A stretch of 64,000 nucleotides of DNA from NCBI GenBank assembly GCA_043808305.1, contig JAZDFB010000123.1:11681-75680 (forward strand). Reading direction: 5' to 3'. Below, piece by piece: positions 25,939-29,723 of the stretch. The stretch comes from Planctomycetota bacterium. Lineage in GTDB: Bacteria > Planctomycetota > MHYJ01 > JACQXL01. Position numbers and translations under genes: made by a program. Each line of letters opens with the position of its first letter. Position 1 is the stretch's first letter. The notes below the pieces were generated by a model. The model was not told where the DNA came from and did no database searches. It saw only the letters and a program-made list of their open reading frames with translations.

Positions 25939-27084
25939 TTACTCAATGTACCCCCTAATCCAAATATTGTTAGAACAGAACTGTCCATTCTTATTGATAA
26001 TAACCCTCACCTTTCTGTCAGCATCAGTCGCCACAATCGCCTCCTTATAGACATTGTTATTTAGGTTAGCGATATTTTGCCAGATGAAGTGGATGGTAGA
26101 CGAGCCCCAGTCAGTTCCGGCACGGCGGCCATAGACCCACAACTGTTGCTCCAACCCCGACGGCACACTCATAGCGTTAAACTGGATTTCCAGAATCACC
26201 GCCTTGACCACCGGCGGTATGAACCCCGGCAGGTCAACTATCTGGTCCACGTTATTGGCCGACTGATCCGTAAAAATCTGCGTCTGGGACTGCAGAAGGG
26301 TCAGCATATCTCCCCCGCTGGCGCCTATCCACTGAAAATTAGAACCGGACTCGTTATAGGTCAGCACCGCCCCGTTGCTGGGCGCGTTAGCCGAAGCCAG
26401 CTTGGACGGCTTGACGCACGAATCCGCAATCTTGCCGCTGGTCACTGCAAGGTCCGCAATCTTCGTCTCCGAAACCGCCTGGTCGGTAATCTCGTTACCG
26501 GTGATTCCCGGTGTAATAGGTCTTGTTATCCCCCCGCCGCTTGGTGTTACATACTTAAACTTACCCGAAGACTGCTCGTAAGTAAGGGCCTGTCCGTCCG
26601 TGGGCGTATTGACCGCCGCTAATTTGCTGGGTTTAATACTTGTCTCCGCCAACTTGTCTCCTGTCACTGCTCCGTCCGCTATCTTGGTTGTGGTAACAGA
26701 GCTGGAAGCCAGTTTCTCGCCGGTCACATTCAGGTTCTTGATATTATCGTTCTCCACAGCCGCAATGGCAATCTTTGCCCTGGTCACACAGGCATCAGCC
26801 AGTTCGGCGCTGGTGACAGCCGGGCTAATCGGCCGGGTGATGGGCGAAGGCGGTATTATCGGCAGAACCAATTTATCCTGCGTGATGGTCTTATCCGCAA
26901 TCTTGTCGTTGGTTACGCATTTGTCCTTCAACTTGGTTGTGGTCACAGAACCGTCTTTGAGCTCCTTTTCTGTTACATTGCCATCGGCAATCTTATCAGT
27001 GGTAACTGCGGACGGTGCAATCCGGGATTCGGTTATCGCATAGGTCGCGATGTTGGCAGTCTTTACTTCATTCGGTTTTAACAT
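25939..27084 (-). CDS. Tail-fibre-like repeat protein (no signal peptide)
   Basis: 381 aa. Degenerate about 11-residue repeats (VTTDKIADGNVT, VTTTKLKDKCVT, NDKIADKTIT, VTTTKIADGAVTGDKLA, SETKIADLAVTSGKIADSCV). Two motifs, GQALTYEQSSGKFKYV and GAVLTYNESGSNFQWI. A compact C-terminal domain. The pattern resembles phage receptor-binding/tail-fibre proteins; this is inference. Confidence 0.6.
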   Translation of the reverse strand: MLKPNEVKTANIATYAITESRIAPSAVTTDKIADGNVTEKELKDGSVTTTKLKDKCVTNDKIADKTITQDKLVLPIIPPSPITRPISPAVTSAELADACVTRAKIAIAAVENDNIKNLNVTGEKLASSSVTTTKIADGAVTGDKLAETSIKPSKLAAVNTPTDGQALTYEQSSGKFKYVTPSGGGITRPITPGITGNEITDQAVSETKIADLAVTSGKIADSCVKPSKLASANAPSNGAVLTYNESGSNFQWIGASGGDMLTLLQSQTQIFTDQSANNVDQIVDLPGFIPPVVKAVILEIQFNAMSVPSGLEQQLWVYGRRAGTDWGSSTIHFIWQNIANLNNNVYKEAIVATDADRKVRVIINKNGQFCSNNIWIRGYIE

Positions 27085-27094
27085 ATAAAACTTT

Positions 27095-27187
27095 CCTTAG
27101 TGCCAGTTAGCAATTACCCGGTGTCAATCGGGTAAGAGCGTTATCTGGCACTTAGTCCCGCAAGCGTAGCTTGACGGGATAACTCAC
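27095..27187. repeat. Nested-hairpin intergenic repeat (TTAGTGCCA / TCCCG..CGGGA family)
   Basis: AGTGCCAG...CTGGCACT encloses TACCCG-gtgtcaat-CGGGTA, then TCCCGCAAGCGTAGCTTGACGGGA. Followed by a CACCACAAAGA-family copy at 27193-27232. Confidence 0.7.
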
Positions 27188-27233
27188 ATTTCATAATTCA
27201 CCACAAAGACACGAAGTCAACAAAGAATTAAAC

Positions 27234-27671
27234 TTATGTATATCTGTGTTTATCTGTGGTTGCATTTTGTTCTATTTCCATAATTAACAGTTTCTCTTCA
27301 ATCTGGAGCCGTCCGGTCTGGGCCTGAAACACCTGTTCCTGCGCCCTTAAGCGGCTAAGTTTGATTTCTGCCCGCTGGATGCTGTTAACTGCCCGGCGGT
27401 ATGCCGGGTCGTAGACCAGCCTGCAGATAACCTCGCTGTCACGCCTCTGCGGGTCGGGGTAATGGGGTTTGCCTTCAAGTAACTCGTCAAAGACCTTTAT
27501 AAAAACCGTCGCCCTGAGCTGTTCTACATCGGCCTGCCGCCTGCGTTTAAGGCATTCCAACCGCTGGCGTTCCTTAATAGCCCTTGCCATCTCATTTGAA
27601 ATAGCTTCTAATTTAACGGCAATCTTCTTAATGCTGTCTTTGAACGCGTAAAACCTGTTACGATTCTGCAT
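27234..27671 (-). CDS. Coiled-coil hypothetical protein
   Basis: 145 aa from MQNRNRF behind AAGGGGG. Heptad-rich and charged (ERQRLECLKRRRQADVEQLRA, LRAQEQVFQAQTGRLQIEEKLL). The 3' end reads into a CCACAGAT-type repeat. Confidence 0.55.
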   Translation of the reverse strand: MQNRNRFYAFKDSIKKIAVKLEAISNEMARAIKERQRLECLKRRRQADVEQLRATVFIKVFDELLEGKPHYPDPQRRDSEVICRLVYDPAYRRAVNSIQRAEIKLSRLRAQEQVFQAQTGRLQIEEKLLIMEIEQNATTDKHRYT

Positions 27672-27786
27672 ATTTTCACCCCCTTTTTGCATTTTTCAGG
27701 GCCTTTTTTGAACCAAATCCTAAGCCCGAAAAACTCATTTATAACCCCGTTATACCCCCATTGTAATGGGGGTTTCGGAGGGGTAG

Positions 27787-27807
27787 CCCCTACCCCCCCT
27801 CCCCCCC
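27787..27807 (-). repeat. G-tract box (minus strand G7 A G7 TA G4) upstream of the coiled-coil gene
   Basis: The plus strand reads CCCCTACCCCCCCTCCCCCCC. An adjacent hairpin CCCCCA-ttgtaa-TGGGGG lies at 27755-27772. Confidence 0.6.
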
Positions 27808-27956
27808 GGCCATACCAGAACTTACTTTGCCCTTAATCCCAGATACCCTATATACGGACAGGTGTTTGTTCTAAACATAATAAGTAGTTGTCCCGGGCTT
27901 ACGGCCAGCCACTCCGCACCGGCAGGAGTGGCTCCCGCATAGAAACCGATACTACC

Positions 27957-28739
27957 CTATGGAGTAGATATCTGCACCTCCATATACTTGCGGCCGTCTA
28001 TGGTGACCCAATCGCAGTGGGATACCCCGGCCGTAGCGAAGGGGCTGTAGGTTGCAGACTGCAGACCGGCAATAATCGCATTGTTCTTATCATTTTCCGC
28101 GGTTATTACAGTTGAATCCCAGTCCGCCTGGACCAGGATTATTCCGCTCTGGATAAGCCGCTGGGCTAAAGCGGCTTTGAGCGCTGCCTTGGACACCGCT
28201 ACATTAAGCGGGCCTCCGGCCAGAATCTCATCATCGCCTCGGAGATGACGCAGAACCGTCTTATCTCCGGTGATGAACGAAACCACCAGCCCGACCAGTC
28301 CCTTGCCCAACTCGGCAACGGCTCCGGTAAATGCCAGTACTTGCCCCATTTGCATGGAGTAAACTTCGTTCTTGGCGTCAACGGCCTCTCGGAACCTCTT
28401 ATTGACCTCTCCGTTGACATCCTCGAACATATGGCTTACCGATGCCAGATACTTCTGGTAGGAGTTCATTGCCTTGAACGCCTGTTTCCGCACGATTTCA
28501 TCTCTGGTCAAATCCGACTTAGAGACGAAGGTGCCATCCATAACCGGCGCATAGCCCGCAGAGGATGGACCGGCTATTTTGGTCTTATAGTCCATCTCAT
28601 TCCCGATAACTAGTTCCGATTTTTCCTTAATGATGTCGGACACTGCCTTCATCACCCGTGCCCTTTGCTCCACCATCAAGGGCGGCGCCTCGCTTAAAGC
28701 CGAGGGCACCATTAATCTTGCCTTAGCAACTATACCCAT
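27957..28739 (-). CDS. Hypothetical protein, 260 aa, no recognisable family
   Basis: Start at MGIVAKARL behind AAGGAGGG (9-nt spacing). No signal peptide and no motif I can name. Confidence 0.6.
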   Translation of the reverse strand: MGIVAKARLMVPSALSEAPPLMVEQRARVMKAVSDIIKEKSELVIGNEMDYKTKIAGPSSAGYAPVMDGTFVSKSDLTRDEIVRKQAFKAMNSYQKYLASVSHMFEDVNGEVNKRFREAVDAKNEVYSMQMGQVLAFTGAVAELGKGLVGLVVSFITGDKTVLRHLRGDDEILAGGPLNVAVSKAALKAALAQRLIQSGIILVQADWDSTVITAENDKNNAIIAGLQSATYSPFATAGVSHCDWVTIDGRKYMEVQISTP

Positions 28740-28939
28740 GTTAAAAACCCTCCTTAACCTGTTAGAACTATGACGCAATAGGCGCCATTGAGTTCTAACG
28801 AGGTTTTCATTGGCCGTTTATGTTAATTTGTTACAATTACCGACTGGTAAACGGCTTTAAACCAGCTTGGCAAAACGGCAAGAAACACCGGGCGGGTTTG
28901 GATGGTTCGCGCATCCGCCCCCCACGAACCCCAGCATTT

Positions 28940-29160
28940 TTTTTAACCGCTAAAATTCTTTCATATAGTATATAACAATAAAACTAAATTTTTTTATGAA
29001 TTCTGGAAAATCCTGGAAAATATTTTATATTTATTTTTGAGCCCCTCTTTTTCATATAATGTATATAAGCGAAAAACAGATTTTGTTCAGGAATTCCGTA
29101 TTTTTTTGCTAAATTTATGAAAATTATTCAAAAAGCAGCTAAATAGTTACGTTTTTAGGT
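28940..29160. other. Strongly AT-rich non-coding block with short direct repeats
   Basis: CTGGAAAAT x2 in tandem. TTCATATAGTATATAA / TTCATATAATGTATATAA about 75 nt apart. Several T6-T8 runs. Confidence 0.5.
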
Positions 29161-29166
29161 TTATCA

Positions 29167-29195
29167 GGGGGAAGGGGTGGAATATAGGGGGTAGG
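29167..29195 (+). repeat. G-tract box (plus strand G5 AA G4 TGGAATATA G5 TAGG)
   Basis: Direct reading. No convincing plus-strand gene lies downstream. Confidence 0.5.
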
Positions 29196-29300
29196 TAAAA
29201 AAGAATAGCTTTGTGCCTCAATACAAGTTAAAATCGTTTTGGGGACAAAAAGAGGGTTATTTTGGATTCGTCGGCGCAGATTATGTTCCGGAAAATCCTA

Positions 29301-29723
29301 TTAAGTTGTTCCGCATACTTTATTTGCCCATACTTCTATTTGGTCTTCGGAAAGGACAACGATGCGCGTTTTAGATTTCGTATCATTAACATACCTTCTG
29401 ACTCTGTCTACTGCTTCCGTAGGAACTACAATTATGCCGACCAACGGCGAGAGAGAATCAATATTAGCAATACTTCCTTTAATGTGTTTAGCGCCTTTGG
29501 CGCTTGATTTACCCTCTAATTCAAAACCAACGAAAGGAATTAAGGGAATAGTATAGCCTCTTGATTGAGGTTTTTCGATTTCAAAATGCTCTAATTTTAT
29601 TCTGTTGTCAAACCAGACTAAATCAGGCCACCCGGAATCTACCGCGCCGAATTCCGTATGCACATCAAACTTCAGCTTTTCTCCAAGCTTTATTATCTTT
29701 TCTTTAACTTCTTTTGTTTGCAT
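29301..29723 (-). CDS. Small PD-(D/E)xK nuclease-like protein
   Basis: 140 aa in an AT-rich gene. GWPDLVWFD ... VGFELEGKSS fits a D...ExK restriction-endonuclease-like core. The assignment is inference from the motif only. Confidence 0.4.
   Translation of the reverse strand: MQTKEVKEKIIKLGEKLKFDVHTEFGAVDSGWPDLVWFDNRIKLEHFEIEKPQSRGYTIPLIPFVGFELEGKSSAKGAKHIKGSIANIDSLSPLVGIIVVPTEAVDRVRRYVNDTKSKTRIVVLSEDQIEVWANKVCGTT

Follow-up and report, generated by a model that had tools for sequence, protein, structure and literature searches.

Four open reading frames (ORFs) on the minus strand of a planctomycetal contig raise the question of why a gene that resembles a phage tail fibre stands among cellular genes. 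They lie between positions 25939 and 29723 of a stretch of 64,000 nucleotides (contig JAZDFB010000123.1 of assembly GCA_043808305.1, positions 11,681 to 75,680; hereafter the window) and encode a 381-aa fibre protein, a 145-aa protein that is probably a coiled-coil accessory protein (cc145), a 260-aa protein (p260), and a 140-aa protein (p140). A reading made from the letters without database searches (the sequence-only reading) had called them an orphan four-gene island and had offered three explanations: a decayed prophage tail module, a tailocin- or adhesin-like device, or a nuclease-containing defence island. We found that all four ORFs are real, and that the locus from 25939 to 28739 belongs to an expanded, lineage-specific family of split fibre cassettes in non-anammox Candidatus Brocadiia, as one member of a subtype with three genes; p140 lies outside the cassette. 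The cassettes constitute a chromosomally encoded, phage-derived fibre family that is closest in kind to the mosaic adhesive trimer (MAT) fibres of the predatory Bdellovibrio.

Searching the window's own assembly (G000, 2.99 Mb) together with 40 relatives unmasked a large gene family. G000 has 18 matches to p260 and 57 to the fibre protein, and a profile search of all its ORFs (hmmsearch for the fibre) recovered 18 p260 genes and 27 fibre ORFs including fragments; about 16 of the latter are full-length, and nine are short ORFs that encode the C-terminal part alone. The locus is thus no orphan, since both its 260-aa and its 381-aa gene are members of large paralogous families. Relatives that possess the family have 2-38 p260 matches each. 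Both families occur in nearly all genomes of one taxonomic family (f1) and in parts of two others (f4 and f5) of the same order, and neither had a match in the 25 other genomes of the class that were searched. Families f2 and f3 and genus g10 of f5 lack the cassettes, which within f5 are present in genus g11. Close homologues come from metagenome-assembled genomes labelled Planctomycetota or Candidatus Brocadiia, several of them from groundwater or the deep subsurface.

The arrangement of these genes is conserved. At ten G000 loci, a co-oriented fibre gene comes next after p260, and the pair is flanked by unrelated cellular genes. The gap between the two is mostly 20-150 nt, and two are larger (~220 nt and 872 nt); the largest is that of the window locus, which also houses cc145. 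Upstream of four cassette copies lies a gene for a membrane-anchored trypsin-like protease (E 4e-17 to Pfam Trypsin_2), accompanied in at least two cases by one for a small Cys-rich protein. Other fibre genes are preceded by a partner of 200-300 aa from one of at least four further families in place of p260, and hhalign comparison of p260 with two of these families showed no relationship. The loci are not syntenic between the genomes compared, and no recurrent phage gene or flanking viral gene was seen at the ~20 G000 cassette loci.

Some close homologues have an island-like context. Tyrosine recombinases with a mutual identity of 41% lie upstream of the window's cassette subtype in G014, a genome from outside the window's genus, and on the metagenome contig L043 (L043 6897-7983; L024 1540-2262); on L043, a Zn-ribbon protein is encoded as well, and a PhdYeFM-ParE pair is close by. 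GmrSD adjoins the p260 homologue of highest identity (87%). The idea of an integrase-borne island in G000 itself was dropped, because no recombinase is near any cassette: the genome has only two Xer-like recombinases, and neither is close to one.

The fibre protein combines a phage-type shaft with a tip that lacks phage relatives. Its predicted likeness to tail fibres was borne out by matches to PHROG 892 (E 9e-29) and PHROG 28766 (E 5e-24), and by tblastn matches over residues 2-290 to tail-fibre-like proteins of T7-like cyanophages (cyanopodoviruses), Marinitoga virus tail proteins, and gpJ-type proteins, with E-values of up to 7e-17. The aligned sequences indicate that residues 1-290 are homologous to phage tail-fibre shaft regions. 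The repeats had been described as 11-mers; their period is 10. The protein has 14 VTxxKIA-like units, against a mean of 0.125 in composition shuffles, and 10 of the 13 spacings between them equal 10. The shaft is interrupted by one G..LTY..S...F.[WY] module and by two ITRPIxP linkers. This module (residue 164) and a second one just past the shaft (residues 238-252) are the two occurrences of a motif that the sequence-only reading had noticed. Because the decapeptide repeats start at residue 17, there is no room for a MAT-type N-terminal domain of ~130 aa; the N-terminal region does have a conserved LxPxEVKT motif. The N-terminus (MLKPNEVKTANIATYAITESR...) has no hydrophobic h-region, its paralogues are alike, and none of the four N-termini of the locus resembles a signal peptide, as had been noted. 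We found no S74 chaperone-protease domain in the fibre protein.

No phage match was found for the last 126 residues. An AlphaFold2 model of this tip is an all-beta sandwich (pLDDT 70), and its best Foldseek hit in the PDB is the fibre tip of Bdellovibrio Bd2133 (8OND/8OK3, E 3.5e-6), with TM-scores of 0.62 (query) and 0.73 (target); viral jelly-roll proteins ranked far behind.

The partner, p260, has no recognisable family, as the sequence-only reading had said. Pfam, NCBIfam, and PADLOC returned nothing meaningful for any of the four proteins, PHROGs matched the fibre protein alone, and the p260 profile, when searched against PDB sequences, retrieved noise (eS10 at E 0.05); no homology of p260 or cc145 to housekeeping families was found either. 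A profile search of 1.84 billion cluster representatives gathered 273 p260 members, and all 29 close homologues are unnamed hypothetical proteins without a Pfam domain. p260 was not found among 50,697 phage records, and a pattern-based search of IMG/VR, which has low sensitivity, did not find p260, two of the other partner families, or the fibre protein. AlphaFold2, run on a 29-sequence alignment, predicts a mostly helical fold in which an N-terminal strand packs against a C-terminal hairpin (pLDDT 90.9, pTM 0.71). Foldseek searches of PDB and BFVD with this model gave nothing better than E 0.8, so that the predicted fold appears to be without a known relative in these two databases. The invariant positions are glycines and no catalytic-type residues are conserved, as would be expected of a structural protein.

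Judging by its fusions and neighbours, p260 belongs at the proximal end of a fibre. It is fused behind a transmembrane helix and a Trypsin_2 protease in the relative G012 and in the public proteins P0057 and P0068, and two further proteins (P0118 and P0120) have C-terminal extensions after the p260 domain; the extension of P0118 looks fibre-like by eye, with weak BLASTP and PHROGs support. On the metagenome contig L044 (JGI; region 380-4221), a short tail-fibre gene of the Mtd_N family (PHROG tail fibre at E 1e-15) comes after three p260 genes in tandem, which hhalign matched at E 1e-42 to 5e-45. Taken together with the window-type cassettes, L044 links p260 to more than one kind of fibre, always upstream, and we infer that p260 is the partner or proximal subunit of the cassette.

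These loci have further features of their own. In G012, the 685-aa fusion protein (L022, contig G012:C20, 3083-5140, minus strand) comprises a transmembrane helix, a trypsin-like protease, a long linker, and p260, and is preceded by a small Cys-rich protein resembling a DksA-like zinc finger. At least four p260 matches in this genome lie within open frames that are 611-693 aa long, and there may therefore be more fusions of this kind in G012. On L044, the Mtd_N gene is followed by a PLD-like nuclease and many small ORFs, the sole phage-like context seen for p260.

The two ends of the cassette differ in how they vary. Across the ten paired G000 cassettes, tips are 63-90% identical, p260 proteins 21-74%, and the N-terminal parts of the fibres 26-94%. 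The ratio of nonsynonymous to synonymous divergence (dN/dS) is 0.08-0.30 in the tip, at a dS of 0.7-2.4, and about 0.2-0.4 in the N-terminal part. Purifying selection together with diverged synonymous sites indicates that the uniformity of the G000 tips reflects constraint and not recent conversion; the dS values rule out recent gene conversion for most of the tip, and it is plausible for codons 273-312. In a mirror-tree test, p260 identity follows the identity of the N-terminal part of the fibre (rho 0.62, Mantel p 0.003) but not that of the tip (rho -0.02).

Other genera have other tips. In G003 (genus g3), 26 fibre genes end in a different C-terminal domain of 84 aa that is 88-100% identical among them. 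Its congener G007 has two copies of this tip and 21 of a version that is ~40% identical, and neither version was found in genera beyond that of these two genomes. The G000 tip domain was not detected in the genomes of other genera, and in one metagenome relative the fibre ends in an unrelated beta-rich domain that looks LamG-like by eye. By these comparisons, the tip is uniform within a genome and different between genera.

The partner and the proximal part of the fibre have a mosaic history. The window's p260 and fibre N-terminal part are 59-68% identical to copies in other genera and another family (G007, G008, and G014), with values of 62-68% for p260 alone. In the same-genus relative G001, the best p260 match reaches only 45%, whereas a conserved neighbouring gene is 96% identical in G001 and 34-41% in those other genera. 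This contrast suggests either horizontal transfer of "heads" (a partner gene plus the 5' part of the shaft) or ancient paralogues with differential loss.

We give somewhat better than even odds to the cassette encoding a composite adhesive fibre, with p260 or another partner at the proximal end, a trimeric shaft of decapeptide repeats, and a shared beta-sandwich tip. p260 would be the base or adaptor subunit that joins the N-terminus of the trimeric fibre, cc145 would be an accessory or assembly factor of the window's subtype, and the tip would bind one species-specific ligand. If the tip binds one ligand, the complex would act as an adhesive fibre, analogous to MAT fibres and to phage receptor-binding modules. 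Of the three options in the sequence-only reading, the adhesin-like device comes closest. The association of p260 with the fibre, trimerisation, adhesion, and a location in the cell envelope or on an unknown particle are all predicted here from the genes and models.

Several observations weigh against a composite adhesive fibre. p260 and the fibre protein both lack a signal peptide and have no known export route, while all MAT fibres have a signal peptide. A constant tip with a variable proximal end is the reverse of what is seen in MAT and most receptor-binding families, and would be odd for adhesins with many targets. The replacement of p260 by other families means that the role of the partner may differ from that of a structural base, and the co-variation of p260 with the fibre N-terminal part could reflect linkage alone. 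Confidence in the tip model is moderate, and the recombinases, toxin-antitoxin pairs, and GmrSD beside some close homologues give those an island-like context. No public sequencing runs containing the locus were found.

Among known systems, the MAT fibres of Bdellovibrio bacteriovorus offer the nearest comparison. Strain HD100 has 21 of these surface-displayed, phage-like trimeric fibres (Caulton et al. 2024, PMC10769870). They are single polypeptides of ~1,000 aa with a signal peptide, a conserved beta-rich N-terminal anchor domain of 130 aa, and tips that vary within the genome; tip folds include S74, the Bd2133 sandwich (Bd2133 being a MAT member), TNF-like, and C-type lectin (PMC10769870). 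Like MAT, the cassettes form a chromosomal multigene family resembling phage tail fibres, of similar size (21 in HD100 and about 16-27 per genome here), they are mosaic with one conserved and one diversified end (here the tips differ between organisms), and their C-terminal tip has a predicted MAT-type fold (the Bd2133 sandwich, by Foldseek with a query of pLDDT 70). They differ in that the fibre is 320-520 aa long and has neither a signal peptide nor the ~130-aa N-terminal domain, the tip is constant within a genome (63-90% in G000, 88-100% in G003), and the variable proximal function appears to come from a separate upstream gene (p260 or another family). As three MAT features that can be assessed from sequence (signal peptide, N-terminal domain, and within-genome variable tips) are not found, the cassettes are not MAT members.

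Other comparisons are looser. Phage tail and side tail fibres (PHROG 892; S-TIP37 gp39; lambda gpJ/Stf) share homologous decapeptide shaft repeats, and in them too the N-terminal part follows the "chassis" and the C-terminal part follows the host; however, phage repeats are found inside proteins of 1,000-1,550 aa within structural modules, whereas the genes described here stand alone among cellular genes in dozens of copies. The mycobacterial PE/PPE pairs (ESX substrates) are similar by analogy alone, as co-oriented, multi-copy pairs with helical partners that lack signal peptides and are restricted to a lineage; they resemble the cassettes neither in sequence nor significantly in fold (Foldseek E 4-6, which is noise), and no ESX-like system is implied. 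We found no description of the cassette family in the literature and no source that names these proteins.

Non-anammox Brocadiia are known from metagenomes alone, and their biology is essentially unknown. By a rough estimate (copy number multiplied by cassette length), about 1.5-2% of a 2-3 Mb genome consists of dozens of fibre cassettes, a share that points to a major cell-interaction system of the lineage, so far undescribed. After Bdellovibrio with its MAT fibres, this would be the second case of a large phage-derived fibre repertoire in a cellular genome, with a logic that departs from MAT in four ways: the split into two genes, a partner fold unmatched in PDB and BFVD, reversed constant and variable ends, and no Sec signal. 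With 273 clusters, a confident model, and no structural neighbour, the p260 family is a ready target for structure determination.

An alternative that we regard as unlikely is that the cassettes are captured viral receptor-binding modules that serve superinfection exclusion by receptor masking. Each cassette would derive from a different virus of the host, and the shared tip would bind the cell's own receptor and block adsorption. A host-specific tip combined with a variable virion-proximal part fits the logic of phages, the contrast in identity between p260 and the neighbouring gene suggests horizontal transfer, and the loci are not syntenic, with integrases, toxin-antitoxin pairs, or GmrSD beside some homologues. 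Endogenous retroviral env genes are a comparable case of receptor masking, and a bacterial precedent is StfE2, from the cryptic prophage e14 of E. coli (bioRxiv 10.1101/2025.03.28.646004). Against masking, the proteins have no signal peptide with which to reach a surface receptor, dozens of copies sharing one tip would exceed what the masking of a single receptor requires, no viral genes flank the ~20 G000 loci, and searches of phage genomes and IMG/VR, whose sensitivity is limited, found neither p260 nor the other partner families.

It is slightly less probable still that the proteins are interchangeable fibres for a domesticated particle encoded elsewhere in the genome (a tailocin, a gene transfer agent (GTA), an extracellular contractile injection system (eCIS), or an unknown one), with the partners as docking adaptors. 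The lack of signal peptides fits cytoplasmic assembly and release by lysis, the fibre genes of RcGTA and eCIS are likewise separate from the main cluster or at its border, and the p260 genes of L044 have a phage-like setting. Yet the Pfam families of the HK97 capsid, portal, and contractile sheath (PF05065, PF04860, and PF04984) had no match in G000 or ten relatives, although control genomes match. Moreover, with p260 there are at least five partner families, those tested being unlike p260, which would require at least five docking sites, and the uniform part is the tip and not the docking end.

A decayed prophage, in which the four genes would be the remnant of one integrated phage, is very improbable and largely refuted by the copy number and selection data. 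The shaft is homologous to phage tail fibres, the flanks are AT-rich with an ORFan next to them, and synteny with the same-genus G001 breaks exactly at the cassette. However, each genome has ~20 loci of this architecture, whose ORFs are intact and under purifying selection, ten of the G000 loci are beside unrelated cellular genes, and the family spreads over three families of one order; no other phage gene is nearby, and the three hallmark families were not found in the genome.

The fourth gene, p140, is an ORFan. Its sole match among 5.8 billion proteins is itself, there is none in 20 relative genomes, and it has no PDB, Pfam, or PADLOC match. It starts 35 nt downstream of a gene encoding an FN3-RCC1 protein (29759-32404), with which it is probably co-transcribed judging from this spacing, and which places it outside the cassette; the four-gene island thus falls apart as a unit, as p140 is without homologues, adjoins the FN3-RCC1 gene, and is separated from the cassette by a 561-nt AT-rich gap. 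The nuclease-like D...ExK core proposed for it can be seen by eye (WPD (33-34) and ELEGK (68-72)) and has no profile or PDB match. In PADLOC, the decapeptide repeats of the fibre protein match PD-Lambda-5_A at E 7e-7 (all other matches have E >= 0.0096), which is a repeat artefact; PD-lambda-5 is a restriction-modification and abortive-infection (RM+Abi)-like system (PMC9519451). An anti-phage defence island with p140 as effector nuclease and the fibre-like protein as sensor, for which the PD...ExK-like residues (in a pattern that looks compatible with an alpha-beta-beta-beta-alpha-beta core), the PADLOC match, and GmrSD beside a close p260 homologue could be cited, is the least probable of all, because p140 is an ORFan in a neighbouring transcription unit that accompanies no other cassette, the PADLOC match is limited to the repeats and to an RM+Abi-like system, and p260 has glycines and not catalytic-type residues at its conserved positions.

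Returning to the cassettes as a composite fibre family, codons 273-312 of the fibre gene, a tract of 120 nt that encodes part of the tip, show conservation of the nucleotides themselves. Among 15 paralogues (105 pairs), third-position identity at codons for the same amino acid is 0.83 in the tract, compared with 0.46 for codons 320-381 and 0.43 for codons 17-160, and the tract folds only weakly better than shuffles (z = -1.9). The 5' ends of the nine orphan fibre fragments all lie in or just past the 3' end of the tract, within ~80 nt; eight of the nine fall within 46 nt, and four are at the identical position. At three loci, a ~560-nt repeat with a G-tract box abuts an orphan 3' fragment of the fibre gene at exactly the same codon. 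The sequence pattern makes the tract a candidate hot spot of recombination or conversion, and together with the clustered breakpoints it offers a testable handle on the reshuffling of such families.

Fragments are 75-84% identical to their nearest copy, which indicates that they are the remains of old paralogues, and their low fragment-to-fragment dN/dS (0.08) is no proof of function. The idea that they are selected mini-genes was dropped, as recent truncation of old, selected paralogues explains this value equally well. An origin from template repeats of diversity-generating retroelements was dropped as well: their differences from full copies are mainly synonymous and show no A-specific pattern, although no reverse-transcriptase search was made. 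Shufflons and other invertible fibre segments (R64 pilV, Mu Gin/G, and e14 Pin/P) likewise have a nucleotide-conserved stretch at the border of an orphan fragment, but the fragments here are scattered over many contigs, encode the same tip, and have no adjacent invertase.

On a speculative and rather doubtful reading of this tract, fibres would be assembled by recombination, with heads moving between genera and families and joining the resident, species-specific tip at the 120-nt tract. That the orphan 3' tip fragments would be landing pads, donors, or footprints of such exchange is an equally doubtful extension. If true, such exchange would give a bacterium a novel means of maintaining many fibres for surface display or interaction and of renewing them; it may be linked to a predatory, epibiotic, or aggregative way of life that has gone unrecognised in these Brocadiia with their small genomes.

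The window has a second trace of the cassette family, a 12-codon remnant of a fibre tip (GLEQQLWVYGRR) at about 2640-2680 on the minus strand. It directly follows a copy of the ~560-nt noncoding repeat (2680-3240, minus strand), which opens with a G8-T-G6 box, has internal repeats, and lies in a region (2300-3500) without an Rfam match. Copies of this repeat with 80-90% identity are found on contigs C14 (two), C27, C50, and C73 of G000, and partial ones on C153 and C94.

The coordinates of the locus and its elements are collected in the table below.

Table. Features of the fibre cassette and its surroundings, in window coordinates.
Feature	Position	Strand	Description
GC-rich hairpin, CCCCGTTAGAGG...CCTCTAACGGGG	25853-25880	-	~60 nt past the fibre stop codon
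Fibre protein	25939-27084	-	381 aa
Fibre tip domain	25942-26319	-	Residues 256-381, predicted all-beta sandwich
Conserved tract	26149-26268	-	120 nt, codons 273-312, in the tip-coding region
Fibre shaft	26395-27036	-	Residues 17-230; 14 VTxxKIA-type units (regular expression)
37-nt imperfect-palindrome element, GTTATCCCGTCAAGCTACGCTTGCGGGACTAAGTGCC	27147-27183	-	In the 149-nt spacer between cc145 and the fibre gene
cc145	27234-27671	-	145 aa, Arg/Glu/Gln-rich
cc145 ORF	27234-27692	-	152 aa; likely start 27671, with a Shine-Dalgarno sequence, giving 145 aa
G-tract box (G7 A G7 TA G4)	27787-27807	-	In the 285-nt spacer upstream of cc145
p260	27957-28739	-	260 aa; partner, proposed proximal subunit
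p260 ORF	27957-28778	-	273 aa; likely ATG at 28739 behind AGGAGG, giving 260 aa
Spacer upstream of p260	28740-29300	-	561 nt, including the AT-rich block (composition profile and sequence)
p140 (140-aa ORF)	29301-29723	-	140 aa

The layout largely matches what had been read from the letters. The spacers given as about 150, 285, and 560 nt measure 149, 285, and 561 nt, the G7-A-G7 box and the strong ribosome-binding site of the 260-aa gene are where they were said to be, and the AT-rich block has a GC content of 0.40 at 29001-30000, compared with ~0.50 in the neighbouring stretches. That the spacers are structured was confirmed less well: the 285-nt spacer has a folding z-score of -1.9 against shuffles, and an Rfam scan of 25000-33000 gave no match. 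The 561-nt spacer has no homology to other cassette loci and is presumed to be the promoter region and boundary of the cassette.

The neighbours of the cassette encode rubrerythrin, YHS, CsgG-like, FN3-RCC1, and XRE proteins. Gene order is shared with G001 from 18367 to the rubrerythrin gene at 25817. Past the break, G001 (L028, contig G001:C15) has a second rubrerythrin gene, followed by signalling genes (GGDEF, response regulators, and a PAS histidine kinase). In G003, another cassette type adjoins the rubrerythrin orthologue. Elsewhere in G000, on contigs C26, C73, C130, C132, C141, C153, C103, C105, and C149, cassettes and fibre fragments repeatedly face, in convergent orientation, a gene that encodes a Ser/Thr kinase-TPR protein (780-950 aa) or a HEAT-repeat protein, which may be chance because those families are large.

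Homologues of cc145 are restricted to the window's cassette subtype. Two loci of G008 and one of G014 have them, each time with p260 on one side and the fibre gene on the other, and G000 has one orphan copy. The latter is part of a stretch on contig C152 (15567-16353) that is 75% identical over 800 nt to the 3' end of p260, the 285-nt spacer with its G-box, and cc145; this cc145 copy has one TAA stop, and no p260 or fibre gene accompanies it. The G-tract box is kept in all five loci of the window's cassette subtype, which span two families. G000 has 17 such boxes, four of them within 1.5 kb of cassette genes compared with 0.7 expected.

Two repeated elements lie at or near the ends of fibre genes. 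The hairpin downstream of the window's fibre gene is part of a dispersed repeat with related copies on at least eight contigs and probably marks the transcript end; a terminator scan did not call it because it has no T-run. The 37-nt palindromic element has further copies in the window (59256-59291, 59191-59222, and 33678-33704) and numbers ~20 copies in the genome as a whole, about eight of them near genes of the cassettes. It is enriched just 3' of fibre genes, often directly past the fibre stop codon (contigs C77, C95, C54, C153, and C50), and may serve as a terminator or as a site of recombination.

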